Positions 700 to 57,674 of a DNA stretch of 64,000 nucleotides are shown piece after piece. The notes under the pieces were generated by a model. That model was given only the letters and a program-made list of their open reading frames with translations, was not told where the DNA came from and searched no databases. The DNA is taken from IMG/VR virus record IMGVR_UViG_3300031519_006853, positions 64,001-128,000 of that record. One strand, written 5' to 3'. Within the stretch, counting starts at the first letter, position 1. Every line of letters starts with the position of its first letter. The stretch is from a virus. A program made the position numbers and the translations under genes.

Positions 700-1248
700 A
701 TGAAAATGAAAATAGATTTTATAATACCTACACTGTACCGCGATACCTTAGGAAGAGCTATTTCTTCGATTGAAGCAGAAAACATTGATCATAATTTACT
801 TATAAGTGGAAAATTTAAAGATGGGAGTGGTGTAAAGAATAGAAATAACAGTCTCGAAAAGGTTAAGGATAGTGATTGGATTATATTTTTGGATGATGAT
901 GATTGGTTACTTAGAGGCTTTAGTAAAGAATTGGATAGTGAATATGACATCGTAGTTTTGAGAATGTTGCAAAACTATAATGATCCTTATTTTCCACCTA
1001 AGTTAATACCACCTTATCATATTAAGCCAGAAGAATTAAACTATGGGTTATGTGGATGTAACATAGCAGTTAAAACTTCATTTTATCTTAAACATAAAAT
1101 AGAAGTAAAGAATGCAAAAAATCCAGACTTTGATTTTTTAGAAAGGTTATTAAAAGAAACAGATAAAGTTAAAATAACTCCGGGTATATATTATATGGCT
1201 CCTTTAGGTGGTTATAATAAAATTAAACCTGACGGTAAAAAAACATAA
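700..1248 (+). CDS. GT-A (GT2-like) glycosyltransferase
   Basis: IDFIIPTL start, WIIFLDDDD DxD motif. Confidence 0.65.
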   Translation: MKMKIDFIIPTLYRDTLGRAISSIEAENIDHNLLISGKFKDGSGVKNRNNSLEKVKDSDWIIFLDDDDWLLRGFSKELDSEYDIVVLRMLQNYNDPYFPPKLIPPYHIKPEELNYGLCGCNIAVKTSFYLKHKIEVKNAKNPDFDFLERLLKETDKVKITPGIYYMAPLGGYNKIKPDGKKT

Positions 1249-1254
1249 TAAGAA

Positions 1255-1860
1255 ATGATAATAACTGCATATAATGATATGATACCATCTAATGTTGTTG
1301 ATGGGCAAAGAAAAATATTTGAAAAGTTTGGAGAAAAGATTATTCAAATTAAACCAGCAACTTGGGGAGGGCATGCTCATACTTTAGATGAATGGATAAA
1401 AAATAATGAATGGGATCATTTAATTGTTTTAGATATAGATTGCATACCTCTTAATAAAGATGTAATAAAAGATGCAAGAGAATGGATTCAAAATAACTTA
1501 GGACTTTATTCAGTTGCACAGAATCCTAATCATATACCTAATGCAATTGATTATGCAAGCCCTGCATTTATAGCATTTTCTAAAAAAACATATGAAGAGT
1601 TAGGGAATCCTAGTTTTCAAGGATCTAATCAACCGCCTTGGGATGTAGGTGGTGAGTTTACTTATAAAGCTTTAGAAAAAAATCTACCTATTAAGTTAAT
1701 GTATCCTAGTGAAGTAGAAATTCCTAAATGGAAATTAGCTAATGGGAGTATGTTTGGTATAGGAACAACTTATGATAATAAAGTATACCATCATTTTGAA
1801 GGAAGAAGATTTAATCATAATAATATTATGAATCGCAAAATAAAATCTATATTAGGATGA
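1255..1860 (+). CDS. putative GT-A-fold glycosyltransferase
   Basis: LIVLDIDCIP DxD motif; glycan-cluster context. Confidence 0.5.
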   Translation: MIITAYNDMIPSNVVDGQRKIFEKFGEKIIQIKPATWGGHAHTLDEWIKNNEWDHLIVLDIDCIPLNKDVIKDAREWIQNNLGLYSVAQNPNHIPNAIDYASPAFIAFSKKTYEELGNPSFQGSNQPPWDVGGEFTYKALEKNLPIKLMYPSEVEIPKWKLANGSMFGIGTTYDNKVYHHFEGRRFNHNNIMNRKIKSILG

Positions 1861-3188
1861 GGGATTTTAATCAATGCCACGTAGGGCCTCATATACAATT
1901 TTTTGGAAAGGCTTTTATGAAAAGATGGAACTTTATCCCTTATACTGATGGGAATAAGCCAGTAGTTTTTTTTGGTATAAACAGACAACATGAATTAATT
2001 AATAATCACAAAGGTCCTAAAATAATTATTACTTCTGGTCCAGAGGATTTACCTGATTGGAATATACTTAAGAATAGAAAAAATCTTTTTCTTTTAAGTA
2101 GTGTAGATAAATTAAATAAGTCTATACCTTCAGATGTTATATTTAAGAGAGAAATGATTGAGATGAAGGATTTTTCGATGTTTAAGCCTAATGTCCTAGG
2201 TAATAAAATTTATGCTTATACAGGAACTCATTCTTGGTCTGTTAATCATTATCTTAAAAATGAATTACAAAAATATCTTCCGTATGAATTAATTTATAAA
2301 ACACATAATAGTGTTAATGATTATTATGATTTAAAATATCTCAAAGAAAATTATTATGACAAATCTTTTATGTGTATTAATTTACATGCTGGATTTGGCA
2401 TGACAACAGTAAGAGAATTGGCTTTAATGGGAAGAAAGGTTGCAATGAATCCTATTAATTATACACACTCCTTTGGTAAAGCTTGTTTACCCTTTGAATT
2501 AAATCATCCTACTAACGGCTTGGTTAATATTATAAAAAAAGAAGCCAAAAAGATTGGTACAATTCAACCTAGTATTAATTTACATACCCAAAATAATGAT
2601 AAATGGTTGTATTTAGATTATTATGTAAACAATAATACAATAAAACCATATAAAAATAAAAATAAAAATACCGTGAAACTTAAAAATTTAGGAAAATATA
2701 ATATTATAGCAGATGATGTTATTATTGAAGATGGCGTAAAGATTGGAAATTTTAATACTATAGCAAGTGGGACAATAATTAAAAAAGGAGCAGTGATTGG
2801 TAATTATTGCGAAATAGGTAAAAATAATGTTATTGGGGAAAATTCTATTTTACAAGGTAGAATTAGAACTGCAAGTGGTTGTATTTTTGAAAAAAATGTA
2901 ACTACTAAATATGGTACTATTTTAACCTCAGATGTATTGTTAAAAGAAGGGTGTTTTTTAGGACCTCATACCATTACGCTAGGATCTACTCATGAAAGAA
3001 TAACCAAGCATGGTACAATTATTGGTAAAAATACTTATATAGGTGCCGGATCCAAAATAGCAGCCGATACTAAAATAGGTGATGATATTGTGATAGGTGC
3101 TTTAGGTTTTGTAAATAAAGATTTAACTACTCCGGGTATATATGCAGGATTACCTGTCAAATTTATTAAGAAAAATAAAAAGAAATAA
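1857..3188 (+). CDS. fusion: unknown N-terminal domain plus C-terminal hexapeptide-repeat acyltransferase
   Basis: C-terminal [IV]GxNxxI repeats ending in GIYAGLPVKFIK. Confidence 0.7.
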   Translation: MRDFNQCHVGPHIQFFGKAFMKRWNFIPYTDGNKPVVFFGINRQHELINNHKGPKIIITSGPEDLPDWNILKNRKNLFLLSSVDKLNKSIPSDVIFKREMIEMKDFSMFKPNVLGNKIYAYTGTHSWSVNHYLKNELQKYLPYELIYKTHNSVNDYYDLKYLKENYYDKSFMCINLHAGFGMTTVRELALMGRKVAMNPINYTHSFGKACLPFELNHPTNGLVNIIKKEAKKIGTIQPSINLHTQNNDKWLYLDYYVNNNTIKPYKNKNKNTVKLKNLGKYNIIADDVIIEDGVKIGNFNTIASGTIIKKGAVIGNYCEIGKNNVIGENSILQGRIRTASGCIFEKNVTTKYGTILTSDVLLKEGCFLGPHTITLGSTHERITKHGTIIGKNTYIGAGSKIAADTKIGDDIVIGALGFVNKDLTTPGIYAGLPVKFIKKNKKK

Positions 3189-3715
3189 TGGAAATACTTC
3201 CAATGAGAACTCCGGCTAATACTAAAGGCCTAAAAGAATTAATATCTTCACTACCATCAAATTTGGTAATGTCTGAAATAGGGTGTTATGCAGGTCTTAG
3301 TACTAAAATTTTTATGGAATCAGGTAAAGTAAAAACTCTTTATGCTATTGATATTTGGGAAGATGTCTTAAATTTATTTAAAAGCAAATGGAAAGATCAT
3401 AATTTTAAAGCAGTAGAAGCTGAGTTTGATAAAAACCTAAAAGGCTTTAATGTAGTAAAATTAAAAATGAATGCTAAAGAAGCACAAGATCATTTACCAC
3501 AATTAGATTTTGCTTATATTGATGGAAATCATCATTATGAATATGTTAAGGAAGATATACAAATTTGTTTAAAAAAAATAAAGAATGATGGAATAATAAG
3601 TGGTCATGATTACTGTGAAGAATCACCAGGCGTCATAAAAGCTGTTAATGAAATGTTTGGTAAACCTGATAAAGTATTTTCAGATGCAAGCTGGATCGTA
3701 AAGTTAAAAAAATGA
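3188..3715 (+). CDS. class I SAM-dependent methyltransferase (Methyltransf_24-like)
   Basis: EIGCYAGLST, YIDGNHHYEYVKED, ISGHDY. Confidence 0.85.
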   Translation: MEILPMRTPANTKGLKELISSLPSNLVMSEIGCYAGLSTKIFMESGKVKTLYAIDIWEDVLNLFKSKWKDHNFKAVEAEFDKNLKGFNVVKLKMNAKEAQDHLPQLDFAYIDGNHHYEYVKEDIQICLKKIKNDGIISGHDYCEESPGVIKAVNEMFGKPDKVFSDASWIVKLKK

Positions 3716-4410
3716 AAAGTTTAAAAGATAAGTGGATGACCACATTTTATGGCATGGATTGGTATAAGATAAATTCTATAACTGATCTTGCTAATATACA
3801 AGGACCTGCTCTAATTGAATATGTTATTGATGTTAATAAATATAGAGAAATAGAAAAAGTACAAGAATTAGGCTTTACTTTAGTTGAAACAGATATAGAA
3901 TTTGAAACTTTAATTGATCATGACAGAGGATCTCTCCCTAATATTAGAATAGCAAATGAAAATGATTTAGGAGCTATTTTAGAAATAACAAAGGAGTGTT
4001 ATTCTTCTCATAATAAATTTTATAATAGATTTAGAAACAAATCTTTTTTTACAGAAAAGCAAGCAGAAGATTATTATAAAAATAGTGTTATTAATAATTA
4101 TGAAGGAGAAAATATAATTAAAGTTGTAGTAGAAGATAACGAAGGTATTTGCGCCTATTATATTATAAAGAAACTGGAAAGTCTAGAACTATATGGAAAA
4201 TATAAAGGCATTATTGCAGGAGTATCTGCTAGGGCAAGAGGTAAAAATCTACATGTAGAAATGCAAAACAAAATAACTGAATTAATTAAAGAACCTTATA
4301 TAACAGTAAATAGAACACAATTAGGAAACTATAGAGTAATAGGAAATCATTTAAAAGATAGAAGACAATTATCTAAAATTGAACATTATTTTTATAAAAA
4401 AATAAAATAA
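3712..4410 (+). CDS. GNAT acetyltransferase, WecD/RffC-like
   Basis: IRIANENDLGAI, GVSARARGKNL acetyl-CoA loop, TQLGN; adjacent to an aminotransferase. Confidence 0.65.
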   Translation: MKSLKDKWMTTFYGMDWYKINSITDLANIQGPALIEYVIDVNKYREIEKVQELGFTLVETDIEFETLIDHDRGSLPNIRIANENDLGAILEITKECYSSHNKFYNRFRNKSFFTEKQAEDYYKNSVINNYEGENIIKVVVEDNEGICAYYIIKKLESLELYGKYKGIIAGVSARARGKNLHVEMQNKITELIKEPYITVNRTQLGNYRVIGNHLKDRRQLSKIEHYFYKKIK

Positions 4411-4412
4411 GT

Positions 4413-5045
4413 ATGCCAATTAAAAAACATAGCCCTTATAAAATAGTAAGTATGTTTGAAGAAGAGCTCTCTGAATATACCGGCGCTAAATATGTAGTAG
4501 CAGTTGACAGCTGCACTAATGCTTTATTTTTAGTTTGTAAGTATTTACAAGTTAAAGAAGTTACTATCCCATCACAAACATATCTTTCAGTTCCTATGAG
4601 CATAATACATGCCGGTGGAAATATAATTTTTGATAAATCAGCAAAATCTAATCATTGGAAAGGCATATATCAATTAAAACCCTATCCTATATATGATGCA
4701 GCAAAAAGATTTACATCTAACATGTATATTAAAGAATCCTTTATGTGTTTATCTTTTCATATTAAAAAATTATTAAATATTGGTAAAGGTGGTGCTATTT
4801 TAACTGATAACAAAGAAGCCTATGAATGGTTTAAAAAAGCAAGGTATGAAGGTAGGAGTGAAAAGTTTTATAAAGAAGACAGTATTGAAACTTTAGGTTG
4901 GAATATGTATATGACTCCACAACAAGCAGCTCACGGTTTATGTTTAATGCAAAATCATCCAATCAACGCAGAAGATCAGGGAGAGCATAATGGTTATCGT
5001 GACTTAACTGAATTTCCAGTTTTTAAAAAATATAAAACTATATAA
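4413..5045 (+). CDS. short DegT/DnrJ/EryC1/StrS sugar aminotransferase
   Basis: VAVDSCTNAL, YDAA, SFHIKK (Schiff-base Lys), GKGGAILTD, LGWNMYM; only 210 aa. Confidence 0.85.
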   Translation: MPIKKHSPYKIVSMFEEELSEYTGAKYVVAVDSCTNALFLVCKYLQVKEVTIPSQTYLSVPMSIIHAGGNIIFDKSAKSNHWKGIYQLKPYPIYDAAKRFTSNMYIKESFMCLSFHIKKLLNIGKGGAILTDNKEAYEWFKKARYEGRSEKFYKEDSIETLGWNMYMTPQQAAHGLCLMQNHPINAEDQGEHNGYRDLTEFPVFKKYKTI

Positions 5046-5710
5046 TGGAAGAATCAATTAAAGAATTAATACAAAAAGAAATACAGGCAATAGGAAATAT
5101 ACCTGTTGATTTTAGTTTTGAATTAGCTGTTAATAAAATTAAAATGAAAGTTCATAGTTTAAGTAAGTGTGGAAAGGTTGTAATTTCAGGTATGGGTAAG
5201 GCTGGTCAAATAGGTTTAAACATTTCAACAACCTTATGTTCTACTGGAACTCCTTCTGTTTATTTACATCCTAGTGAAGCACAGCATGGAGACTTAGGAA
5301 TACTTCAACAGAATGATGTTCTTATTCTTTTATCAAACTCTGGTAAGACTAGAGAAATATTAGAATTAATTGAATTATCTAAAAACATGTATCCTCATAT
5401 TAGTATTATCTGTATAACTGGTAAAAAAGATAGCCCATTAGCAAAGGCATCAGATATAGTTTTACACACTGGTGATGCTGATGAAATTTGCCCGCTAGGA
5501 TTAACACCAACAATATCAACAACACTAATGACAGTAATCGGTGATATCTTAGTTGTAGAATTAATGAAGAAGATTAACTTTTCAAAAAAGGAATATTCTA
5601 AAAGACATCATAGTGGTTATTTAGGACAGAAAAGCAAAGAGGACACTAAGCATCCACCAGGAAGTTTGTTAAATGAACTTCCACCAAACGATTATCAAAT
5701 GGGAAATTAA
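5045..5710 (+). CDS. kdsD: arabinose-5-phosphate isomerase, SIS domain only (no CBS pair)
   Basis: GMGKAG, HPSEAQHGDLG, SNSGKTRE, EICPLGLTPTISTT. Confidence 0.9.
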   Translation: MEESIKELIQKEIQAIGNIPVDFSFELAVNKIKMKVHSLSKCGKVVISGMGKAGQIGLNISTTLCSTGTPSVYLHPSEAQHGDLGILQQNDVLILLSNSGKTREILELIELSKNMYPHISIICITGKKDSPLAKASDIVLHTGDADEICPLGLTPTISTTLMTVIGDILVVELMKKINFSKKEYSKRHHSGYLGQKSKEDTKHPPGSLLNELPPNDYQMGN

Positions 5711-6417
5711 TGAAAACAATAATTATTATACCTGCAAGATGGGAATCAACTAGATTACCAGGGAAGCCTTTAGCTATGATTGGTGATAAGCCAATGATAC
5801 AACATACTTGGGAAAGGGCATGCGAATCTAATGCTGATGAGGTTATTATTGCATGTGATAGTAAAATTGTATATGATGCTGCTACTAAATTTGGGGCTAA
5901 AGTTATATGGACTCCTGGTGCAGATACAGGAACTGAAAGAGTAATAGGTGTTCAAAAAATTGAGGCTGCTGATTTTATTATTAATGTTCAAGGCGATGAA
6001 CCCTTTATTAATCCTAATGATATTAATGAAGTAATTAAAATTGTTCATAATCATCCAGATAAAGTAGCAACAATGTCAACAGATTTAACAAGTAATGAAG
6101 GAAAGGATCCTAATGTTGTTAAAGCAATACGAAATGCAATAGGTTTAGTTGGAATGTTTACTAGGAGTTCTATTTACATGAAAACTAATTTTGCATATAA
6201 GCATATTGGTTTATACGGCTATAGTGCTAAAGTACTAAACAAAATATCTGCATTAAAACCTTCAGAAAGTTCTATTAAAGACTCACTAGAGCAATTAACT
6301 TGGATGGACAATAATATACCTATTGTTGCAGGTTGGACATCTTACAAGTCATTAGGCGTTGACACAAAAGAAGATTTAAAAAATGCTAATGACTTTTATA
6401 AAACTATTCATAATTAA
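5710..6417 (+). CDS. kdsB: CMP-Kdo synthetase
   Basis: IPARWESTRLPGKPL, TGTER, INVQGDEP, HIGLYGY, SLEQL, GVDT. Confidence 0.92.
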   Translation: MKTIIIIPARWESTRLPGKPLAMIGDKPMIQHTWERACESNADEVIIACDSKIVYDAATKFGAKVIWTPGADTGTERVIGVQKIEAADFIINVQGDEPFINPNDINEVIKIVHNHPDKVATMSTDLTSNEGKDPNVVKAIRNAIGLVGMFTRSSIYMKTNFAYKHIGLYGYSAKVLNKISALKPSESSIKDSLEQLTWMDNNIPIVAGWTSYKSLGVDTKEDLKNANDFYKTIHN

Positions 6418-6426
6418 TCCATATAA
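6401..6426 (+). promoter_or_regulatory. class II motif AAAC-N17-TATAA
   Basis: AAAC-N15-CATATAA. Confidence 0.55.
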
Positions 6427-6450
6427 TAATAAATAATAAGTATACTTTAA

Positions 6451-7458
6451 ATGAAGAGGAAAATAGTATTGTATGGCGGATATTCCGACAATGAGTATAA
6501 TGCAGAAACAGTATATGATACTAAAGGATGCGGTGGTAGTGAAATAGCGTTAATCAAGCTAGCTGAAAATTTAGCCAAAGACAAACGCAATGAAGTTGTA
6601 GTCTCTTCTAGTATGATTATAGAAGGAACATTTAAAGGCATACTTCACCTAAATAAGAAGAGCCTAAATAACTATCTAAATAACAACGAAGTTGACATTG
6701 CTATAGTGTCTAGGTATATCCATTACGTCCTTGATCACAAGTTGGCCAAGAAAAACTATTTATGGCTACATGACTATCAACCTCATTCATGGTGGAATGG
6801 AAAACAATTTAATCCAGAAGTCCTAGGTAATTTGTTTCCTTTATTTGATAAGGTAGTGTGCGTTAGTGATTGGCAAGCAGGTGTTCAAATTAGTAGATAT
6901 GGGGAACATGTCAAAGAGTTTCTAACCACCATACACAACGGAGTCGATCAGTCTAATTTTCCTAAAGAAATAGACACTTCTTTAAAGCAATCTGGTAAAA
7001 TAGTTTTTAATTGCAGAACTAGCGGGCTTCAGAATGCCGTTGACTGGTTTAATGAATACAAAAAACACAATCAAAACGCAGAGCTCCATGTCTTTGCACA
7101 AGAAGCTGGTTTACAACACGTGGCCGGTGACTTGACAGGAGTTTTTGATAGAGGTAGAGTTTCTAATATAGAAATGATAAATGAACTCGTAACCGCTGAG
7201 ATATGGATTAATTCAAGCACAGTGCCTGAAACGTTTTGTATATCTTCAGTAGAAGCTCAGCTTTGCAAGTGCATACCTGTTATAATGCCACAAGCCGGCA
7301 TGTTAGAAATAACACCACATTACAATGATGTAAAAAGTCATAACATTGACTTTACAACTAGACAAATAGAAGAAAACTATAAATCAGCATTAGATTTCAC
7401 ATGGGAACGAAATGCTAAAGAGTTTAATGTGTTAATAAATAAAAAATATAATGTTTAA
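6451..7458 (+). CDS. GT4-like (GT-B) glycosyltransferase
   Basis: GGSEIA, VCVSDWQ, IHNGVD, ETFCISSVEA (ExF..E) motif. Confidence 0.8.
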   Translation: MKRKIVLYGGYSDNEYNAETVYDTKGCGGSEIALIKLAENLAKDKRNEVVVSSSMIIEGTFKGILHLNKKSLNNYLNNNEVDIAIVSRYIHYVLDHKLAKKNYLWLHDYQPHSWWNGKQFNPEVLGNLFPLFDKVVCVSDWQAGVQISRYGEHVKEFLTTIHNGVDQSNFPKEIDTSLKQSGKIVFNCRTSGLQNAVDWFNEYKKHNQNAELHVFAQEAGLQHVAGDLTGVFDRGRVSNIEMINELVTAEIWINSSTVPETFCISSVEAQLCKCIPVIMPQAGMLEITPHYNDVKSHNIDFTTRQIEENYKSALDFTWERNAKEFNVLINKKYNV

Positions 7459-7690
7459 AATACTTAAAAAAATTAGAGCTTGGTTTTTGCCAAAGCATGA
7501 AGGTGAATTTTCATATTCACCAGAAGGTTTTGTTATGGCTAGGCGATGGGCAAAAAATCAACCTCATCCTAAATTACCAGATCACCCAACCCAATCATTA
7601 TGGAACTATGTAGAGAGTAATTGGATTGATTCAGAATATAAATTAAATGAAATCAATAAAGTTAAAACAAATAAGAATAAAAGTATATAA
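7451..7690 (+). CDS. hypothetical protein
   Basis: ORF tightly coupled to neighbours. Confidence 0.6.
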   Translation: MFKILKKIRAWFLPKHEGEFSYSPEGFVMARRWAKNQPHPKLPDHPTQSLWNYVESNWIDSEYKLNEINKVKTNKNKSI

Positions 7691-7695
7691 TTAAT

Positions 7696-7959
7696 ATGGA
7701 AGGTCAAAAAATGAATGTAGATATTGATTCAACACAAGAAATAGTTTGTGATGAGTGTGGTCATAACGTGTTTAGGCCAGGATTCTTCTTAAGAAAGATA
7801 AGTAGGTTTGTATCACCAGATGGCCAAGATAGGTTATTACCTTTAGATACAATGGAATGTAGTAAATGTGGAAATATTAATAAAGAATTTCAGGCAGCAA
7901 CGCCTAAAGTAAAAACAAAAACAAAAACTAATAATTTAAAAGATGGCAAAGACAATTAA
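7696..7959 (+). CDS. zinc-ribbon protein
   Basis: CDECG ... CSKCG. Confidence 0.7.
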   Translation: MEGQKMNVDIDSTQEIVCDECGHNVFRPGFFLRKISRFVSPDGQDRLLPLDTMECSKCGNINKEFQAATPKVKTKTKTNNLKDGKDN

Positions 7960-8647
7960 AATGGATAGAAACAATAAAGAGTCATACGATAATCAAATCG
8001 ATGCTTCTGTGGGTTCTAAAGAAGAACAACAACAATTAAAGGATGAATTATATACTCCTAAGGGAAATACTCATATAAAACCTGATCCTCGAAAGATGAG
8101 TGAAATTATTACTGATAAGAAAGCTGCATTAAAACTTAATGAAGATTTACTTAGAAATCTTCAGAAAAATGAGTATGATATTCCAATGGCAAAAGCTAAG
8201 CTTTATAAGCAACTTATGAAGTTTTTAGAAAAAGATGCTGAATGGGGTCATACTACTGCGACAGGTTTAGTAATGTTATATTCTAATCTTAAAGAAAATT
8301 CTAAAGCAGTTCAGTCTAAAGACTGGGACGGTATTGTTAAATTAAGAGGTACAAGTATTACTATCCTATGGACAATGGTAACATCAATGAAAGGTAAAGG
8401 ATTCTTTGAAGCTAGAAATTTTATTGAGTTAATGGCTGAATTTGGACAAGATCTTTCTACTGTAGTTCAAAAGGTTCATCAAGATAACCAAGCACTTAGA
8501 GATAATCACGTAAAGTTATCAGAATTAGATAAAGAAGTTAATCATCCTGATGTTATTCTTGATGTATCAATTGATGAATATAATAAAGCTGAAGATGAAC
8601 TTAATCAATTAATGGATGAAGTTGATCCAGTAGTAGAAACAGTTTAA
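7943..8647 (+). CDS. hypothetical helical protein
   Basis: 234-aa ORF in operon. Confidence 0.65.
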   Translation: MAKTIKMDRNNKESYDNQIDASVGSKEEQQQLKDELYTPKGNTHIKPDPRKMSEIITDKKAALKLNEDLLRNLQKNEYDIPMAKAKLYKQLMKFLEKDAEWGHTTATGLVMLYSNLKENSKAVQSKDWDGIVKLRGTSITILWTMVTSMKGKGFFEARNFIELMAEFGQDLSTVVQKVHQDNQALRDNHVKLSELDKEVNHPDVILDVSIDEYNKAEDELNQLMDEVDPVVETV

Positions 8648-8648
8648 T

Positions 8649-8897
8649 ATGGGATTCCACAGAAGACATATAGATAATGATCAAGTTATCAGATTTTATA
8701 ATGACGGTGGAGTAGAAAGAATAAGAAGTTGGTATACACGAGGAGTGGATGCTTTAATTACAGAAACCGGCCTGGCATCACAGGTCGGTTCTATTCTTTC
8801 AGATGATGAATGGAGACAAATAGGAACTGTTCGCCAAGATGAAGAAATCATCAAAATAATTCAACAACATTTAGGAGTAGAAGACATTAAAAAATAA
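8649..8897 (+). CDS. hypothetical protein
   Basis: ORF in operon. Confidence 0.6.
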   Translation: MGFHRRHIDNDQVIRFYNDGGVERIRSWYTRGVDALITETGLASQVGSILSDDEWRQIGTVRQDEEIIKIIQQHLGVEDIKK

Positions 8898-8939
8898 CTC
8901 CATCCTTGTTGAATAAATAAAGAAAACAAACTGTTTAAC

Positions 8940-9998
8940 ATGGAACATATTAAAGACTACAAATTATTTAAAGAGTCTCTAAATACCGAAGTACTCAATG
9001 AGGCTTTTAGTTCAGGTATCTTAAGAGATTTATCTAGCCAAAGTAGAGGCAAATGGGGTGGCAACTTAGCCAAAGACATGCAAAAATATGCAAGTCTTGC
9101 TCTAGACAAAATTTCGGATTCGGATTTTACTACAACTTCACCAGAAGCTTATTGGAAAGGTGGCGATGCAAAGAACCCTAACAAAATAGGATTCTTTGTT
9201 GATGATGATCCAGGATTTATTAAATGGGCAAAGGCAAACAAAAAATACTTACCAGGAGATTTAACATTAGGTAACATTTCAAAATATGGAATAGTATTAT
9301 CTGTTGTAAGAGGTGGTGCTGGGATGTGGCATGGATTTGCTACTGATAGAGGTGGTTCTTATAGTAGACATAGAAAAGGTACTGAAGAAAGATATGGACT
9401 TCTTGCAAAAGAATATGATACTAACGGAGTTTACAGAGGCTATGAAGGCAAAAATGTTGTTGCTAAAGTAACAAGGAAAAATCTTATTGATATTGCAACT
9501 CGTGTTTATGTATTAGACTTAGATAGTTTAAGAGATAAGTATGATGTAAGCGGTTTAACTAGTGATCGTGCCAATGCTAAATCAGGTGCAACTGCGTTAA
9601 AGGATGCTAAAACTATTAAAAAAGAAAATCAAGCAAGGTATGATGCTATCTTAACCGATAGAGCTGCAATGACTGATGTTGATAAATCAGTTAAAGATTC
9701 TATTGAATTATTAAATCAACATATATCCGATGCATTAAAAGATGGTACTATGGATAAATTTGGAAACCTTACTATTGGTGAAGATCCAAGAGGAAGAAGT
9801 ATTAAGATAACTGATGGCGCTAATTACATTAAAAATCTTTTAGATGATTACCAAAGATATAAGGATTATGAAAGACAAGATAAAGAAGCAAAAGCTGATG
9901 GTAGAGAAGATAACTGGCATGCAAGAGAAATAAAGAATTATGCTAAAAGAATTCAAGATAGAGCTAGAGCAGTAAAGGCTAAAAATTATGCTTGGTAA
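8940..9998 (+). CDS. putative virion-internal protein with CTS-like leader
   Basis: MEHIKDYKLFKESLNTEVLNE|A leader. Confidence 0.6.
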   Translation: MEHIKDYKLFKESLNTEVLNEAFSSGILRDLSSQSRGKWGGNLAKDMQKYASLALDKISDSDFTTTSPEAYWKGGDAKNPNKIGFFVDDDPGFIKWAKANKKYLPGDLTLGNISKYGIVLSVVRGGAGMWHGFATDRGGSYSRHRKGTEERYGLLAKEYDTNGVYRGYEGKNVVAKVTRKNLIDIATRVYVLDLDSLRDKYDVSGLTSDRANAKSGATALKDAKTIKKENQARYDAILTDRAAMTDVDKSVKDSIELLNQHISDALKDGTMDKFGNLTIGEDPRGRSIKITDGANYIKNLLDDYQRYKDYERQDKEAKADGREDNWHAREIKNYAKRIQDRARAVKAKNYAW

Positions 9999-10000
9999 TT

Positions 10001-11803
10001 ATGAAACATATAAAAGAATATTTATCATTTAGAGACTCTTTAAATGAAGGACCAGGAAAGGGTTACTATATTGAAGTAGCTGTCCGAGATGCTAGAAAGG
10101 CTTTAGCAATTTTAGATGACATGTATCGTAAGAAGTTTGATATTAATGGAAGTAATGTTTATTACTTTAAGGATGAAGACATGGCATATGATGCTAAGAT
10201 GGATTTAGCAGCCAGAGATATAGAAATTGTTGATACTAATATTGAAGAATCATTAGATGAAAAGGCAGGTCCATGCTGGGATGGTTATAAAATAGGATCT
10301 CCTAAAACAAAGATATCTTCTCAAAGTGGTAAAAGAGTTAATAATTGTGTTCCTATAGATGAAGAAGTTAATGAAAAATTAGCTCGAGGATTAAAACCCT
10401 TATTGAAATTAGGTTCAACTATTACTAAGAAGACTGGTGAAGATGCATTACTAGATTTATCTGATAAGTTTGATAGTATAGATGATGAATATGCTGGAAC
10501 TATAGCAAGCCATTTAGATATGGCTATTGAATTAATGCAAGATGGTTATTCAGGAGATGCTACTAAAAAATTAAAGCAATTTAATAAAGCATGTAAAGAT
10601 GTTCTTAGTGGAAAGGAAGTTGGTTCAGCTTTTGAAAACGTTAATGAAGCAACATATAACTCAAAGAATCATATAGGAGATACTTCTGATGGGCAAGGTT
10701 CTAATGCTGAGATTTATAAAAAAGGAAAAGGATATTATGTAGTTGTTAGTGGAGAAGTTGATTATGATTTTACTGCAAAAAATGACAAAGAGTTATTACA
10801 AAAGTTAAAAGATAATGAATTTGATTCTACTGATATATTAGAAGTTAATGAAGGCAACTTTGATGATATTTTAGATTTAGTTAAATCTTTACATTTTGAA
10901 ATAGATCCTAAGGTTGCTAAGGAAAAGAAAATTGAACTTGGTAAAAGACAAGGCGAATATTCATTAAGAAAACAAATTGAAGGTGGAGAATATTCATTAA
11001 GAAGATTTAGAAAGGAAATTAAATACGACAAAACTGGTAAAGATCTTGGTATATTTAGACCTGGTAGTTATATGGCTGCTACTTCTACAGCAGGAGACGG
11101 TCCACATAGGAAGGCCGTTGCAAAGATTAAATGGAATCAAAAGAAATATGACCAATGGTTAGAAGATGTTGCATCAAATGATGGTTGGAAGAATGCTTTC
11201 GATATGGCACAAAATGCTAAACAAGAACCAGGGTTAATTTCTTGGGTTAAGAAAACGTTTAGAGTTCCTGATCCAATGCAAAGAATACAGTGGGATATTG
11301 AATCATTTGCAGAATCAGTTGATGAATCTGCAATGTCTGAACTTGATATATTAGCAAAGGAGGCAAAAGACTTTAAGGCATTTACAAAAGAAGTATTTAA
11401 AGAATTTAAAAATTTACCAAAAAAGGCAGATACTTTAAAATGGTTAGAAGAATTATATAACGATGCAATAAATGAAGCAGAAAAAGCTGAAGGTGATCGT
11501 AGTAAATTATCAGCTGACATTGAAAAAGCATTAAAGGATAAGGCTACCGAGAGTGGCGTACCTATTGGATTATTAAGATTAGTAATGAGAAGAGGTTTGG
11601 ATGCTTGGAACAGTAGTCATCGTGCAGGTGTACCACAAGTAGCTTGGGGTTATGCTCGTGTAAATGCATTCTTAGAAAAAGGTAAAGGAACTTGGGGTAA
11701 GGCTGATGCTGATATTGCAAAAGAAGTTAGAGATGAAGGCAAGGCTGGTAAACTACCAATTAAAAATCCTTCTGAATTTACCAAAAAAGAAAGAGAAGCA
11801 TAA
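10001..11803 (+). CDS. putative head-processed polyprotein (7 modules)
   Basis: MKHIKEYLSFRDSLNE leader; internal SLDE, EVNE, NVNE, EVNE, SVDE, AINE linkers; PCWDGY..NCVP and RGLDAW..H..WGYARVNAF modules resemble small T4-like phage domains. Confidence 0.65.
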   Translation: MKHIKEYLSFRDSLNEGPGKGYYIEVAVRDARKALAILDDMYRKKFDINGSNVYYFKDEDMAYDAKMDLAARDIEIVDTNIEESLDEKAGPCWDGYKIGSPKTKISSQSGKRVNNCVPIDEEVNEKLARGLKPLLKLGSTITKKTGEDALLDLSDKFDSIDDEYAGTIASHLDMAIELMQDGYSGDATKKLKQFNKACKDVLSGKEVGSAFENVNEATYNSKNHIGDTSDGQGSNAEIYKKGKGYYVVVSGEVDYDFTAKNDKELLQKLKDNEFDSTDILEVNEGNFDDILDLVKSLHFEIDPKVAKEKKIELGKRQGEYSLRKQIEGGEYSLRRFRKEIKYDKTGKDLGIFRPGSYMAATSTAGDGPHRKAVAKIKWNQKKYDQWLEDVASNDGWKNAFDMAQNAKQEPGLISWVKKTFRVPDPMQRIQWDIESFAESVDESAMSELDILAKEAKDFKAFTKEVFKEFKNLPKKADTLKWLEELYNDAINEAEKAEGDRSKLSADIEKALKDKATESGVPIGLLRLVMRRGLDAWNSSHRAGVPQVAWGYARVNAFLEKGKGTWGKADADIAKEVRDEGKAGKLPIKNPSEFTKKEREA

Positions 11804-12348
11804 TGAAATTTATAAAAGGCTTTACTGATTTTAAAAATGTATCTGAAGAACTTAAATATCATGTAGATAATGGTATAGGTTTAGATGATAGTGTTTTTCG
11901 TTTAGGATCTGATGCTCATAGTAAATTATTTGAAGAAGCTAAACAATATTGGGATAAAGGAAATCTAGTATTAAAAGGTAAAAGCGGATTTATGGCTAAG
12001 AACCTTGATGTAGGTAAAGAAGCTATTTATAAAGATCGTAAATCAGGCAGAACTAAAAAAGTTAAACTTGATTCACCAGAAAGAGGCGGCAATAGAAAAT
12101 TTATTGTTTATCGTGATGGCGGAAGAACTGATAAAGAAACAGGAAAGATTGTTGCAAAGAAGATTGAATGGGGAGATCCTAACTTATCTGTAAAGAATGA
12201 TGATCCTGGTGCAGCTGCTAGTTTTTGGGCAAGACATCAATGTGATCAAAAGAAAAAGATGGATCCAAATAAAGCAGGCTTTTGGGCATGCTATGGACCA
12301 AGTCTATTTGGAAAGCAATTAGGATTAAAGAGTACTAATCCTTGGTAA
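11803..12348 (+). CDS. putative virion-internal protein with CTS-like leader
   Basis: MKFIKGFTDFKNVSE leader; GDPNL..SFWARHQC..AGFWAC resembles a widespread phage domain. Confidence 0.6.
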   Translation: MKFIKGFTDFKNVSEELKYHVDNGIGLDDSVFRLGSDAHSKLFEEAKQYWDKGNLVLKGKSGFMAKNLDVGKEAIYKDRKSGRTKKVKLDSPERGGNRKFIVYRDGGRTDKETGKIVAKKIEWGDPNLSVKNDDPGAAASFWARHQCDQKKKMDPNKAGFWACYGPSLFGKQLGLKSTNPW

Positions 12349-12375
12349 GTAATATATAAAAAAATAATATACACA

Positions 12376-13470
12376 ATGAAACATTTACAAAGAATAGATG
12401 AAGCTGTTGGTACAATCTTAGAAAGAAGAGCTTCGGCCGAATCTTTACTTAAAGGTGTAGCTAAAGGCGATTCAACTGAAGTAGAGGGAATTAAAATGTC
12501 TAAAGATATGGCTGATGCTTATTTAGACTGGTTAAGGTTATCAACTTATGGTAAGAAATTTGGAGCATTACCATTTTATAAATTATTTTCAGCTTCGTTT
12601 AATTGGGGTATAGAAAGATATATTGGTAAAGATTTAAAAGCTGAACTTAAAGAACTTAAAGCCAAGGCTAAATCAATGAAAGAGGCTAACGAGATTAATG
12701 AAAAAACTTCTTTAGGAAAACTTTCAAAGTTAATAGATAAAGCAGTAAAGAAAGCTGATGTTCCATTAAGCTATGCTAGAGAATATATTAGTTCTTTAGA
12801 AGATATGGCAAAAAGAAATTCTAAAAAGTTCTTTAAAGATTATAATAATTTTAGTGAAGATGATTTTATCGAGGATGTTGAATATAACATGGCTAATGAA
12901 AATAAAGTAAATGAAGCTAAAGATTTTGAACCTCATATGATGTATGATCCTGAAACTGGTGATGAATATGAAGCTGAAAAACCAGAAGATCATGAGAGAA
13001 TGGCTAAACTAGGTTATGTTCATGAAAAACCAGAAAGCGTTGATGAGGCTAGGTTTGTAAAAGATTTTAACACGCGTGTTTTGGATGCAAAAACAAAAGA
13101 GGAAGTTTTAAAACTTTATCCAAATGCAGAATTCTTTATTGGTAAATCAGACCACTTCTTTGGAGAATTAGATGCTAACTTATTCTTTAAAGCATATTAT
13201 ACAAAAGGGCAAAAAGAATTTAGAATAAAATCAGTTTATTCTGAGAAAAATAAAAACTATGTTCATTTATTTAATGAATCATTAAATGAAGCCGCTCCTC
13301 GAATAAAAACGAGTAAAGAAGAAGCAAGCTTATTAGATTTAAGAGATCAAGTTAGATATGCACAAAAGGGTGGATCTGCTAGCAGATATGCAAAAGACTT
13401 TGAAAAAGCAAAGAAAAAGGCTTTAAGTGCATTAGGAGATATGATAACATATATAAAAATAGGAGTATAA
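12376..13470 (+). CDS. putative head-processed polyprotein
   Basis: MKHLQRIDE|A; internal EINE, KVNE|A, SVDE|A, SLNE|A. Confidence 0.6.
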   Translation: MKHLQRIDEAVGTILERRASAESLLKGVAKGDSTEVEGIKMSKDMADAYLDWLRLSTYGKKFGALPFYKLFSASFNWGIERYIGKDLKAELKELKAKAKSMKEANEINEKTSLGKLSKLIDKAVKKADVPLSYAREYISSLEDMAKRNSKKFFKDYNNFSEDDFIEDVEYNMANENKVNEAKDFEPHMMYDPETGDEYEAEKPEDHERMAKLGYVHEKPESVDEARFVKDFNTRVLDAKTKEEVLKLYPNAEFFIGKSDHFFGELDANLFFKAYYTKGQKEFRIKSVYSEKNKNYVHLFNESLNEAAPRIKTSKEEASLLDLRDQVRYAQKGGSASRYAKDFEKAKKKALSALGDMITYIKIGV

Positions 13471-13475
13471 TAATT

Positions 13476-14051
13476 ATGAAAAACTTTAGAACATACGGAG
13501 AATTTATTACCGAAGCTTATTCTGATGAAGATAGAAAGGCAATGGCAGAAAAAGGATTTGCCTTATCTGATGGGAGTTTTCCTATCGCTAATTTAGAAGA
13601 TCTTAAGAATGCAATCCAAGCTTACGGTAGAGCAAAGGATCAAGCAAAGGCTGCTAAGTTTATTGTAAAGAGAGCAAAAGCATTAGGTGCTGAAGATCTT
13701 GTTCCTGATACAGATGATTTTCAAAAGTCATTAGATGAAGTTGCTGTTGGGTCTGCTATACATGATGTATCTACTGAGCTTCCTGCTAAAACTATTGCAT
13801 TTCCTGTAGAGGATGATGAAGAAGCAAACGGATCTATTACTGAAGGAACTGATATTGGTTCATGGAATCAAGGCGGACTTAAAGGAAAGGAAAATGTTTT
13901 AATAACTACCTTTGTTGGTCCTAAAGATGTTGAAGATTTTGGCCTAGGTAGAAAATGCATGCAAATAAATGTAGGAATGAAATATGTTTCATTAAATCCT
14001 GCTGATATTGTAGAGTTAAAAGATATTCTTAAATCTTATAAAGTAAAGTAA
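13476..14051 (+). CDS. putative virion-internal protein with CTS-like leader
   Basis: MKNFRTYGEFITE|A resembles the T4 IPII/IPIII CTS MKTYQEFIAE; DGSFPIANLEDLKNAIQAYGRA module. Confidence 0.65.
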   Translation: MKNFRTYGEFITEAYSDEDRKAMAEKGFALSDGSFPIANLEDLKNAIQAYGRAKDQAKAAKFIVKRAKALGAEDLVPDTDDFQKSLDEVAVGSAIHDVSTELPAKTIAFPVEDDEEANGSITEGTDIGSWNQGGLKGKENVLITTFVGPKDVEDFGLGRKCMQINVGMKYVSLNPADIVELKDILKSYKVK

Positions 14052-14389
14052 TGGGTTGCGGTTGTAATAACTGTAAGTGTGGCAAAGAAGCCAACGATGA
14101 ACTCATAGAACAAATAGAAGATCAAACTAAACCTTTTATTCAAGAAGAGTATTCTATAAATACTGTACTTAGGCATTTTGATCCATCTGCCCCTAATCAT
14201 TTATATAAATGGCATGCCGATGATGAAGATCGTTGGATTGAGTCTTTAAATGAAAACGATTGGAAATTTCAATTTGATGACGAATTACCTCAGTCATTAG
14301 AACCAATGAAGATTATACAAATACCTAAAGGCGTTATACATCGCCTAATTAAAGGTACTTCTAAATTAAGTATTTCTATTAAGTCTTAG
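14051..14389 (+). CDS. small cupin-like protein with Cys-rich N-terminus
   Basis: WHADDEDR...IPKGVIHRLIKG; MGCGCNNCKCG. Confidence 0.55.
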   Translation: MGCGCNNCKCGKEANDELIEQIEDQTKPFIQEEYSINTVLRHFDPSAPNHLYKWHADDEDRWIESLNENDWKFQFDDELPQSLEPMKIIQIPKGVIHRLIKGTSKLSISIKS

Positions 14390-14489: not shown

Positions 14490-16514
14490 ATGGGAGAAAT
14501 TTATCCAGAGGAAGAACAACAAGAAAAGAAGCCGAGGTTTAAAAAGCAGACATTAGTGTTAGATACTTATGGTACTAATCTAAGCAAGTCAGCTATAGAA
14601 GGTAAATTAGATCCAGTCATTGGACGAACCGATGAAATACTTAGAGTTATACAAATTCTAGGAAGGCGTAGAAAAAACAATCCAGTTTTGGTTGGTGAAC
14701 CAGGTGTAGGTAAAACTGCAATCGTAGAAGGTTTAGCATTAAAAATGGTAGAAGGAAATGTTCCTGTATCACTACAAGGCAAAATCATTTATACTTTAGA
14801 ATTATCAACAATCGTTGCAGGTACAAAATACCGTGGCCAGTTTGAGGAACGGATGAAAAGTATTGTTGATGAATTAATTCTTAATCCACATATCATTGTT
14901 TTTATTGATGAATTACATACTCTCGTTGGAGCCGGTGGTTCTACAGGATCATTGGATGCATCAAATATTATTAAGCCAGCTTTAGCAAGAGGGGAAATTA
15001 GATGTATAGGTGCAACTACTTTTGATGAATTTAGAGAAAACATTGAAGATGATGGCGCATTAGATAGAAGATTCCAAAAGGTTGTAGTAAATCCTCCAAC
15101 ATTAGAAGAAACAATTGAAATACTTTCAATGATTAGGCATAAGTATGAAGAACACCATAGTGTATCATATTCAGATGAAGTTATTAATTTAATTGTTAAG
15201 CTTGCTGATCGTTATATTATGGATAGGTTCTTTCCTGATAAAGCAGTAGATATATTAGATGAGGTAGGATCTTATAAGCATTTAATTAACATGAAAATTC
15301 CACAAGGGATAAAATCATTAGAAGAAAAATTAGTTCAAAAGGAAAATGCTAAAAGAAAGGCAGTGTCTCGCCAACTTTATGAAGTAGCTGCAAAGGAAAG
15401 AGATGCATGTTTAACCCTTAAAGAAAGAATTAAGCATGATCTTGCTGAATGGAAAGAACAAATGGCAGTTAATCAATTAGAAATAACTGAAGATGATGTA
15501 TTAAAGGTTGTATCTAAATCAACAGGTGTACCGATAGAAAAAATATCTGATAAAGAAAACAAAAATTTATTAGGTCTTAATAAACATCTATCATCTAGAG
15601 TTATAGGACAAGAAGAAGCTGTTAATAAAATAGCAGTAACTGTTCAAAGAAACCGAGTAGGTATTAGAAAAAGAAACCGAACAATGGGTAACTTTATTTT
15701 CTTAGGTCCTACTGGTGTTGGTAAAACTCAATTAGCAAAAGAATTAACAGAATATCTTTTTAATAGTGAAGATTCATTAATTAGAGTTGATATGTCTGAA
15801 TACATGGAACCGCATTCTATTTCTAAATTAATTGGAGCACCTCCTGGTTATGTAGGTTTTGAAGGTGGTGGTTTTTTAACAGAGCAGGTAAAGAGAAAAC
15901 CACATTCAGTTATATTATTTGACGAGATAGAAAAAGCTCATCCAGAGGTCTTTAATGTACTTCTACAAATGTTAGATGATGGGCAGTTAACTGATTCTTT
16001 AGGCAGGACTGTTGATTTTAGAAATTGTTTAGTAATTCTTACATCAAATACAGGATCTAGAAAATTACAAGACTTTGGCCAAGGGATAGGATTTGAAAGT
16101 TCTTCTAAGATGGTTAATCAAGTTGAAGAAGAAAAAACTATTTTAAGAAAGGCTCTTAAAAACAAATTCTCACCAGAATTTTTAAATAGAATTGATGAGG
16201 TTGTAGTATTTAATAGATTAACGGAAGATAATGTAATGGATATTTTAACTAAAGAATGTAAAGAACTTGCATTAAACTTAGAAGAAGTAGGAAATTATAT
16301 TTTTAAAATATCTAAAGGCGCTAAAACAATAATACTTAATCAAGGATATGATCCTAAGTATGGAGCAAGACCTTTACGTAGAACCGTTGAAAGATTAATT
16401 GAAAATAAGATATCTGAATTTATTCTTAAAGGAGATTTAAAAGAAGGTGGTACGATTAATGTTAAAAGTACAAAAGGCGAATTAATAATTGATATAACAA
16501 ACATAAAAGAATAA
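14490..16514 (+). CDS. clpC: ClpC/ClpA-type AAA+ unfoldase lacking the N-terminal Clp-repeat domain
   Basis: Walker A motifs GEPGVGKT and [11 protein letters not shown]-like middle domain, IGF loop (GIGFE), YGARPLRR. Confidence 0.9.
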
Positions 16515-17182
16515 TGAATTACGGAAAAGAATTTCAGAAGTATGCAATGAGTGATCATAATGTTAGCTCATCTAAGTTAAATTATTATGAGAAGCAAATT
16601 GAATCATCAATGACTCCTTATATTTTAGAGGAGAGAGAATTAAGAGCAACACAAATGGATATCTTTTCAAGGTTAATGATGGATAGATTACTTTGGGTTG
16701 CTGGGCCAGTTAATGATGGTATGTCAACAGTTGTTCAGGCTCAACTAATGTTCCTAGATAGTGTAGAGAAAAAAGATATCACAATGCATATTGATTCTCC
16801 AGGAGGTTCTGTTAAATCAGGACTCTCTATGGTAGATGTTATGGATTATATTAAATCAGATATAAGAACAGTCAATACAGGCATGGCTGCATCTATGGGA
16901 TCAGTTTTACTAGGTGCAGGAACACGGGGTAAAAGAAGTTCACTAAAACATTCAACAACAATGTTACATCAATCATCAGGAGGGTTTAGTGGAAATATAC
17001 AAGATGCTGAAATTGATATGAAAGAATGGAAAAAGATTAATAATACTCTTTTTAAATTACTCGGATCATATTGTGGTAAAAAACCAGAAAAAGTAGCAAA
17101 GGATGCAACTAGAGATTTTTGGTTAAATGCTGAGGAGGCTGTAAAGTACGGAATTATTGATGAGATAATAGGAGTTAAATAA
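16514..17182 (+). CDS. clpP: ATP-dependent Clp protease proteolytic subunit
   Basis: DSPGGSV, GMAASMGS, MLHQ, RDFW catalytic motifs; Bacteroidota-like N-terminal extension. Confidence 0.95.
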   Translation: MNYGKEFQKYAMSDHNVSSSKLNYYEKQIESSMTPYILEERELRATQMDIFSRLMMDRLLWVAGPVNDGMSTVVQAQLMFLDSVEKKDITMHIDSPGGSVKSGLSMVDVMDYIKSDIRTVNTGMAASMGSVLLGAGTRGKRSSLKHSTTMLHQSSGGFSGNIQDAEIDMKEWKKINNTLFKLLGSYCGKKPEKVAKDATRDFWLNAEEAVKYGIIDEIIGVK

Positions 17183-18515: not shown

Positions 18516-19314
18516 ATCTCAATTAACTTCAGGCTTTTCTTTAAGTTTACATGATACGTATATAAAGGCAAAGCCTTATCCACATATTTCTATCGATAAT
18601 TTTATACCTATTGAGGATATAAGATTATGTGTTAATGAAATGAAAAACTTTCCAAACTGGGGATATGATAAAGGTAATGAGCATTTCCAAAACAAAAAAT
18701 ACTTTTATCCTTGGCGTGAAATTGAAACTATCTTAGGTCCTACTAGCGATATCGCTGATACTGTTGAAACACTTTCAACTAAGGCCCCTGTATGCTGGAA
18801 GTGGCTTAGCTATTTTAATTCAGAAGATTTTATTAAAATTTTAGAAAACTTAACTGGAATAAAAGATCTTATGCCAGATCTAGGTTTTTCAGGTGGTGGT
18901 ATGCATATGATACAATCAGGTGGAAAATTATCAATTCATAGTGATTTTAACAAACATCCTTATGGTTTAGGTTGGAGAAGAATTAATTTATTAGTTTATT
19001 TAAATGAAGATTGGCAAAAAGAATGGGGTGGAACTTTACAGATTTGGAATAAAGATATGTCTGAAATGGTTTCTGAATTTCAACCGTATGCAGGTAAAGC
19101 TATTATTTTTAATACAACTGATGATGCACTACATGGTCACCCTGACCCTCTAAATTCACCAGAATACATAGCACGGCATTCATTTGCATTATATTATTTT
19201 ACTAAAGATAGACCCGAGCATGAAAAATCAGATTTTATTGGTGCCCAATGGTATGACAAAGGAAATCCGTTAAGTGTACAAGAACAAGAAAATAGAGAAC
19301 AACAAAATGCATAA
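18505..19314 (+). CDS. 2OG-Fe(II) oxygenase
   Basis: IHSDFN (HxD), RINLLVYLN, WGGTL, LHGHP, RHSFALYY. Confidence 0.88.
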   Translation: MKTRSQLTSGFSLSLHDTYIKAKPYPHISIDNFIPIEDIRLCVNEMKNFPNWGYDKGNEHFQNKKYFYPWREIETILGPTSDIADTVETLSTKAPVCWKWLSYFNSEDFIKILENLTGIKDLMPDLGFSGGGMHMIQSGGKLSIHSDFNKHPYGLGWRRINLLVYLNEDWQKEWGGTLQIWNKDMSEMVSEFQPYAGKAIIFNTTDDALHGHPDPLNSPEYIARHSFALYYFTKDRPEHEKSDFIGAQWYDKGNPLSVQEQENREQQNA

Positions 19315-28486: not shown

Positions 28487-29389
28487 ATGAAATATATTAA
28501 AAGTTTAGATGAAAACTTTATAACCGAAGGGGCTGAATTAAATGAAGCAGTAAATGCATCAGGATATCTCAAAGCCGGTAAATTAGGTGTCAATGACCAA
28601 TTCTTAGGAAGAAGGTCTTTAGCGTGGACATTATCAGTTGATCTAGGATTAAAAGCAACTGATGAATATGTTGGCCCATGGTTAGGATTTGATCATGTAT
28701 CAATGTATGCTATTGGTAAAAAAGGAGGAACTATTTTAGATAATGCGTTAACTAATAAATATACTTATGAAGAATTAAAAGCAGCTGCTGCAAAATTTTT
28801 AGGTATTAAAGAATCTGTTGATGTTAATGAAGCTGTGTCTAGATCTGATAAAGCAGTTAAAGATTTAGAAAAGCAAGGTTCTCAAATTGATTACTTAGAA
28901 GATGCTGATTCTGAAACTAAAAAGATTTGGAAAAAGTCTGGTGTTAATACTGATGATGAAAATACAATCATTCTTTATTCTTATGTTAACGACTCATGGC
29001 CTGAAACTAAAAAGATATTAAAAAAACACAGTGTAGATTTTAAAGAGTTAGAAGATCCTAATTCTGCTGGTGAATCTTTTATTGTATTTGTAAATGAATC
29101 AATTGATCTTAATGAAGCAAAGAAATTTAAACCAGGAGATATGTGGTCAAATGATTTTGACTATGATGGTATGATGAAGTATGCTCTAACTGTAAATCAT
29201 AAGACTCCAATTAAAACCCTTACTAAATTACATGATTCAGCAACCGATGTAAATTATCATACTCCTTTTAGAGGTTTAGGTAATGCAATTGATTGGATAA
29301 CTGATGATGGTGTTAATTCACAAGAAGGTAAAGACTTTATGAAACAATTTCATAATGATATTAAGGCTGAAATAAAAACAATGAGGTAA
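28487..29389 (+). CDS. putative head-processed polyprotein
   Basis: MKYIKSLDENFITE|GAELNE|A; ESVDVNE|A; ESIDLNE|A. Confidence 0.6.
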   Translation: MKYIKSLDENFITEGAELNEAVNASGYLKAGKLGVNDQFLGRRSLAWTLSVDLGLKATDEYVGPWLGFDHVSMYAIGKKGGTILDNALTNKYTYEELKAAAAKFLGIKESVDVNEAVSRSDKAVKDLEKQGSQIDYLEDADSETKKIWKKSGVNTDDENTIILYSYVNDSWPETKKILKKHSVDFKELEDPNSAGESFIVFVNESIDLNEAKKFKPGDMWSNDFDYDGMMKYALTVNHKTPIKTLTKLHDSATDVNYHTPFRGLGNAIDWITDDGVNSQEGKDFMKQFHNDIKAEIKTMR

Positions 29390-31074: not shown

Positions 31075-31078
31075 AGCT

Positions 31079-31831: not shown

Positions 31832-31832
31832 T

Positions 31833-32159: not shown

Positions 32160-32174
32160 ATAAAAACAAAAACA

Positions 32175-32687: not shown

Positions 32688-32689
32688 CT

Positions 32690-57157: not shown

Positions 57158-57158
57158 A

Positions 57159-57644: not shown

Positions 57645-57674
57645 AATTAGTTTTATATTTGTTTATATATTTGT

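Follow-up and report, generated by a model that had tools for sequence, protein, structure and literature searches.

Some twenty otherwise unrelated genes of a large uncultured phage share an N-terminal leader that resembles the T4 capsid targeting sequence

Phage T4 uses a capsid targeting sequence (CTS), the 10-residue N-terminal leader of the internal proteins IPII and IPIII, which according to the literature on this system suffices to load foreign proteins into the head. Residues 4 and 7 (Tyr and Phe) are the main determinants of targeting, and residues 8 and 10 govern processing; with Asp at position 10, a protein is still loaded but no longer cut (PMC9026906). It is established for T-even phages that diverse internal proteins can have only the CTS in common (PMC3012670, PMC9026906), and the polymorphic loci in which such genes are clustered (Repoila et al. 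1994, as cited in PMC3012670 and PMC9026906) are read as encoding fast-evolving, injected counter-defence proteins. In the giant phages phiKZ and SPN3US, whose prohead proteases belong to the S80 family, many different head-internal proteins are likewise cut after Glu by a T4-related protease. Here we describe a leader of the T4 kind in a 64,000-nucleotide stretch of viral DNA (hereafter the window), which comprises bases 64001-128000 of a single virus record, IMGVR_UViG_3300031519_006853, of 181,663 bp and about 30% G+C. A first-pass annotation of the window had listed 12 genes with a shared CTS-like leader, and the analyses below make it quite probable, as judged from sequence comparison, that these leaders are T4-type capsid targeting sequences.

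Each of the 12 N-termini was found in the sequence at the start claimed for it. They fall into three groups: plus-strand clusters at 8940-14051 and 28487-33259, of five genes each, and a minus-strand pair at 56258-57644 (Table 1). A further eight leader genes outside the window (genome starts 22041, 50058, 168440, 172004, 174235, 175985, 177346 and 177704) bring the total for the genome to 20. The open reading frame (ORF) of leader gene 2 was listed from a TTG at 9992; its leader arises from the ATG at 10001, two bases past the upstream stop codon. The combined length of the 20 tagged genes is about 5,700 residues. That the bodies behind the leader are unrelated, as had also been claimed, was borne out by an all-against-all BLASTP comparison of the 20 candidates from residue 23 onwards, in which no pair fell below E = 0.01. 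Pfam and PHROGs assigned no family to most of these bodies, and a search of the ESM Atlas with them gave no usable match.

The most direct link to T4 comes from cross-recognition. The 10-residue leader of IPII and IPIII was read directly from T4 DNA, and a profile built from the 20 leaders of this phage only was run against 246 ORF N-termini of T4, covering 150 of the 169 kb of that genome. IPI ranked 1st, IPII 4th and IPIII 5th; by our arithmetic, three named ORFs would all reach the top five of 246 by chance about 4 times in a million. The positions that matter in T4 are also occupied in a matching way here, as position 4 is I/L/V/F/Y and position 7 is F/Y/L/I in all 20 leaders, and a hydrophobic-x-Glu triplet, with the hydrophobic P3 and the P1 Glu of T4, ends between residues 8 and 21 in 20 of 20, weakly so in the 29389 gene. 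One other T4 gene stood out in the same ranking. The N-terminus in 2nd place belongs to the 54-residue hypothetical protein gp61.1 (gene 61.1, 18966-19130 on the minus strand of the T4 stretch), the leader of which is almost identical to that of IPI. We know of no report that gp61.1 is packaged.

Scans of this genome with the leaders, which had been suggested along with the annotation, placed the tag at true protein starts. A profile of the 12 window leaders reached at least 5.5 bits in 10 of 211 other N-termini as compared to 11 of 962 internal Met-started segments (Fisher p = 0.0016), and eight of its top nine non-seed N-termini were the leader genes outside the window. In all 20 genes the leader stands at the extreme N-terminus, and the best internal match to the leader profile in the 57,610-residue proteome scored 4.4 bits. 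Profiles were used in place of simple regular expressions, which were dropped as too loose (one matched 75 of 223 N-termini, with no enrichment).

The protease that would cut such leaders is encoded at genome 18182-19903. This S77 (gp21-type) protease of 573 residues (PF03420, 53 bits) matches T4 gp21 at 32% identity over 113 residues (E = 7e-12), and a His and a Ser stand opposite T4 His85 and Ser140, which we take to be the catalytic residues of gp21. Its C-terminal extension is scaffold-like and contains nine in-register repeats of 14 residues (residues 243-368, genome 18908-19285) with the consensus Y-S-E-Y-[LIV]-[AG]-E-N-L-D-K-S-I-x, each of them with a cleavage-type site. The repeats are kept in 24 relatives and occur in a looser form in a 48%-identical homologue; as no tandem repeats were detectable in the DNA of the protease gene, they are evidently old and held at the protein level. 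The first seven residues of the repeat match the spacing of the T4 leader core (Tyr at P7, aromatic at P4, hydrophobic at P3, Glu at P1), as do many of the leaders here, and T4 gp22 likewise has many I-A-E-type sites. The leader profile does not score the repeats, and the resemblance is limited to this seven-residue core. We offer tentatively, as a rather doubtful hypothesis, that the leader mimics the scaffold, in that it would be a single copy of a scaffold repeat, making the same helix contacts in the core and being released by the same cut. Residues 1-60 of the capsid protein are near-invariant in relatives and contain four hydrophobic-x-Glu sites, as would be expected of a propeptide, and adjoining the capsid gene is a tagged, K/E-rich protein of 356 residues with further hydrophobic-x-Glu sites inside it, which is likely a scaffold.

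The leader genes also share a putative control element with the structural genes. The motif ATATATAA occurs 46 times in the genome, 40 times on the plus strand, and about 30 of these occurrences lie 17-41 nt ahead of a gene start, mostly of structural genes, including those for the portal, protease, sheath, tube and many baseplate proteins. It is also found ahead of leader genes or clusters at genome 22041, 50058, 76376, 77476, 121644 (minus strand), 168440, 174235 and 177346. Because structural genes share the motif and a gp55-like sigma factor is present, ATATATAA is likely the core of a late promoter, slightly unlike the TATAAATA of T4.

Related genomes show that the leader peptide itself is conserved. 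In the 356-residue K/E-rich protein, the leader is kept in 14 IMG/VR orthologues of 52-92% identity. In a 166-kb relative, nine genes in a row begin with almost the same leader, written in differing synonymous codons, and therefore selection acts on the leader peptide. A degenerate DNA pattern for the leader matched at least 120 IMG/VR stretches, many of them in contigs of 100-480 kb, and the same pattern in reversed letter order had no match in IMG/VR. Among the matches listed, 139 of 167 were the first ATG of an ORF of at least 50 residues, Ala, Ser or Gly followed the Glu in 84 of those 139, the positions left unconstrained by the pattern showed strong amino-acid preferences, and some arrays reached nine or ten genes. 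An S77 protease is encoded in all five large leader-pattern contigs tested, in a frame of 618-769 residues, with one match below the Pfam cut-off. By these searches the leader is widespread in large IMG/VR contigs. In other uncultured phages, represented by IMG/VR 3300031566_000207 and by a second stretch (989-10159), nine to ten consecutive leader genes stand within 5-9 kb, and the array at 989-10159 adjoins a tail sheath gene.

Behind the tag, the bodies are exchanged as modules. Of 113 homologues of the 31079 protein, 65 start with a leader and show rearranged modules. The 10001, 12376 and 57157 proteins have N-terminal modules that each occur, in metagenomic homologues, fused to the same NTF2/SnoaL-like domain that ends the 31079 protein (homologue P0043 in the case of the 57157 module), and stand-alone homologues of this domain (139-159 residues) have no leader, most of them starting with a membrane anchor instead. 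An internal domain of the 12376 protein (residues ~109-225) is common to other marine phage proteins that are also leader-started. Among the relatives checked, the Melnitz phages have only one domain in common. In an AlphaFold model of the 31079 protein, with a mean predicted local distance difference test score (pLDDT) of 74, only residues 1-9 and the linker at 110-128 fall below a pLDDT of 50, and both segments hold or adjoin a hydrophobic-x-Glu site. The model is in keeping with a tag that is exposed and, perhaps, with another cleavage in the linker that separates the modules. Elsewhere in the genome (50058-51275), a tagged 405-residue protein gave weak matches to ATP-grasp enzymes (YheCD/TTL-type, and the PHROG for ribosomal protein S6 glutaminyl transferase), and it is possibly a packaged protein-modifying enzyme.

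Outside the window, the genome encodes a head module of the T4 type with gp4 (head completion), gp2 (DNA end protector), portal, the S77 protease and a Gp23-type capsid protein of 642 residues, together with the gp55-like late sigma factor. The nearest relatives of the capsid protein are those of an uncultured 462-kb phage (51% identity), the Prevotella Lak phages, the Tenacibaculum phages PTm1 and pT24 and the Sphingomonas phage PAU; Flavobacterium and Chryseobacterium phages are also among them, and cyanophages are more distant. On the basis of this head module and these capsid relatives, the sequence places the phage as a distant member of the T4 superfamily. The Bacteroidota host assumed in the first-pass annotation is no more than plausible from such comparisons: the capsid relatives are mixed, with a Sphingomonas phage and cyanophages among them, and two quick host checks came back empty: the closest genomic relatives of a sugar-dehydratase gene were uninformative, and a Bacteroidota-type promoter pattern showed no enrichment in this phage.

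Set beside the T4 CTS, the likenesses are numerous. In both cases, a short N-terminal leader (10-20 residues here) starts with Met-Lys, is hydrophobic or aromatic at both position 4 and position 7, closes with a hydrophobic-x-Glu site (here mostly with Ala, Gly or Ser next to it) and precedes bodies that are unrelated to one another; a gp21 homologue with the catalytic His and Ser accompanies it, and the leader profile of this phage finds the T4 internal proteins. In contrast to the handful of tagged genes in T4, about 20 are present here. The leader varies in length, and the bodies are larger (up to 600 residues) and in many cases acidic, enzyme-like and made of several modules. The protease is fused to scaffold, and the phage is only distantly related to T4. 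The arrays of tagged genes here and in relatives resemble the T-even polymorphic loci described above, with the difference that whole modules are shuffled here among tagged genes across hundreds of metagenomic proteins. With phiKZ and SPN3US, the phage shares the cutting after Glu expected of its T4-related protease, which gives a weaker match to S80 as well; the portions of the phiKZ and SPN3US papers found describe no T4-like consensus leader across the processed proteins, whereas the Met-Lys-type leader here is T4-like. A literature search returned no paper with these leader strings and none that links the CTS to marine, cyanobacterial or flavobacterial T4-like phages.

Taken together, the T4-type reading is supported by the cross-recognition of T4 internal proteins, the matching targeting and processing positions, the S77 protease, the late-like motifs, the conservation of the leader in orthologues, the shuffling of modules behind it and the co-occurrence with S77 proteases in other contigs. 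According to this reading, the tagged proteins would be made late in infection together with the head proteins, and the first ~10 residues (Met, Lys or Glu, hydrophobic or aromatic at 4 and 7) would bring each of them into the scaffolding core of the prohead. The gp21-type serine protease, scaffold-fused in this phage, would then cut after the hydrophobic-x-Glu at the leader end, and perhaps in linkers between modules too, and the mature bodies would stay beside the DNA inside the head and pass into the host along with it. Of this scheme, we infer the co-assembly, the cleavage, the retention in the head and the ejection. The earlier proposal of a T4-type CTS, portable between unrelated bodies and cut by a gp21-type protease, agreed with every computational test run, and its parts on virion presence and cutting stand as predictions.

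Several observations weigh against this reading. The nearest cultured relatives have a capsid identity of only ~30%. The bodies have isoelectric points from 4.3 to 9.8 and, unlike the T4 internal proteins, are not uniformly basic. As the number of tags far exceeds that of T4, some of the ~20 tagged proteins may go unpackaged or be present in few copies. Three of the leaders are weak: that of the 12376 gene is short and has no aromatic residue, that of the gene at genome start 175985 (outside the window) deviates too, and in that of the 29389 gene, cleavage is uncertain because its only hydrophobic-x-Glu ends at residue 8, and Glu13 is replaced by Asp in an orthologue. The pattern I/L/V/F/Y/M at position 4 with F/Y/L/I/W at position 7 occurs in 20 of 20 candidates and 24 of 203 other ORFs, a statistic that is partly circular because the candidates were chosen by resemblance. 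Finally, a depletion of hydrophobic-x-Glu within the bodies, sought as a sign of protection from the protease, was not detected, and therefore the sequence does not imply a single cleavage with the body surviving.

The undepleted bodies bear on an alternative in which the tagged proteins are mostly core or scaffold components used for assembly only, which would be degraded and expelled like T4 gp22 and not delivered as cargo. The K/E-rich tagged protein beside the capsid gene, scaffold-like and with its extra hydrophobic-x-Glu sites, would fit such a role, as would the site in the linker of the 31079 protein. Several other bodies are enzyme-like or ligand-binding-like (ATP-grasp, NTF2/SnoaL, DUF5824) and not coiled-coil scaffolds, and the diversity and shuffling of the bodies resemble the polymorphic internal proteins of T4, not a conserved scaffold; we regard this alternative as unlikely for the tagged proteins in general. 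Still less probable is that the shared N-terminus is no protein signal at all and reflects AT-rich codon usage, selection at the mRNA start or common descent of an exon-like first piece. Met-Lys starts and A-rich early codons are indeed common in a genome of 30% GC, and the 24 other ORFs mentioned above are also hydrophobic at positions 4 and 7. Against this, the leaders vary at synonymous sites while the peptide is kept, and the profile picks out the tested CTS proteins of T4, which together rule out an artefact of codon usage or translation; the amino-acid preferences at unconstrained positions and the Ala, Ser or Gly after Glu among the matches listed, as well as the empty result of the reversed pattern in IMG/VR, point the same way. 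We consider this explanation very improbable.

The neighborhood of cluster 1 raises one further alternative, in which a ClpC-like ATPase and ClpP encoded by the phage itself would read the leader as a degron or adaptor tag, for timed degradation or unfolding and not for head loading. At 14490-17182, beside five of the leader genes, lie the genes for a Clp ATPase with two AAA domains and for a full ClpP. This candidate was rejected because only one of at least six leader loci lies near Clp genes and because T4 loads its head by the same motif while the 150 kb listed from its record include no annotated Clp gene; the leader end is moreover a gp21-type cleavage motif, and the leader co-occurs with S77 proteases in five other contigs. 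The chance that it accounts for the leaders is in our view very small.

The features of the window are collected in Table 1. Three further ORFs or gene pairs, all on the plus strand, lie beside or within the leader clusters. Within cluster 2, a leaderless ORF at 32175-32687 has a lipoprotein-type signal peptide. Between cluster 1 and the Clp genes, an ORF of 112 residues (14051-14389) has five Cys in its first ten residues and no family match. The Clp genes themselves (14490-17182) encode a ClpC/ClpA-like ATPase of 674 residues that lacks an N-domain and has, near residue 533, a G-I-G-F loop for docking to ClpP, followed by a ClpP of 222 residues.

Table 1. Leader genes and late-promoter-like motifs of the window, in window coordinates
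Feature	Position	Strand	Remarks
AATAAATAA, variant of late-like motif	8912		ahead of leader gene 1
Leader gene 1, 352 residues	8940..9998	+	opens cluster 1; hydrophobic-x-Glu ends at residues 12 and 21; no Pfam/PHROG family
Leader gene 2, 600 residues	10001..11803	+	L-N-E ends at residue 16; DUF5824 at C-terminus
Leader gene 3, 181 residues	11803..12348	+	V-S-E ends at residue 15
ATATATAA, late-promoter-like motif	12352..12359	+	24 nt ahead of the 12376 gene
Leader gene 4, 364 residues	12376..13470	+	short leader ending in I-D-E at residue 9
ATATATAA, late-promoter-like motif	13449..13456	+	27 nt ahead of the 13476 gene
Leader gene 5, 191 residues	13476..14051	+	I-T-E ends at residue 13, then Ala; among the closest matches to the T4 leader
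Leader gene 6, 300 residues	28487..29389	+	opens cluster 2; I-T-E ends at residue 14, L-N-E at 20
Leader gene 7, 561 residues	29389..31074	+	typical N-terminal half of leader; sole hydrophobic-x-Glu ends at residue 8
Leader gene 8, 250 residues	31079..31831	+	leader (I-N-E ends at 12), folded module A, flexible linker (V-N-E ends at 125), NTF2/SnoaL-like domain (Pfam)
Leader gene 9, 108 residues	31833..32159	+	L-N-E ends at residue 9, then Gly
Leader gene 10, 189 residues	32690..33259	+	V-K-E ends at residue 18; V-N-E in an orthologue
Leader gene 12, 299 residues	56258..57157	-	leader three residues longer; V-N-E ends at residue 17, then Ala
Leader gene 11, 161 residues	57159..57644	-	first of minus-strand pair; V-N-E ends at residue 14
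ATATATAA, late-promoter-like motif	57663..57670	-	26 nt ahead of the 57644 start

Read as T4-type targeting sequences, these leaders would carry a mechanism known from T4 over to a distant and widespread group of phages, with far more cargo; notable are how many genes are tagged, how modular they are and how widely the tag has spread. Provided that the tag acts as it does in T4, about 1 gene in 11 of this phage encodes a head-borne protein that enters the host with the DNA, and most such proteins, which are without an assigned function, are likely aimed at host takeover or defence. Should scaffold mimicry and cleavable linkers also prove true, they would make the head a general loader of combinatorial polyprotein cargo in a very large uncultured group of big phages. 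A tool for protein delivery, as the first-pass annotation envisaged, would require a cultured phage-host pair. As the same tag stands on hundreds of genes in large uncultured phages, it may allow injected proteins to be predicted in viromes by a simple rule at the sequence level. A tag that works as in T4 would also mean that T4-like phages have retained the loading signal of T4 over very large evolutionary distances, a point that bears on how the signal is read.

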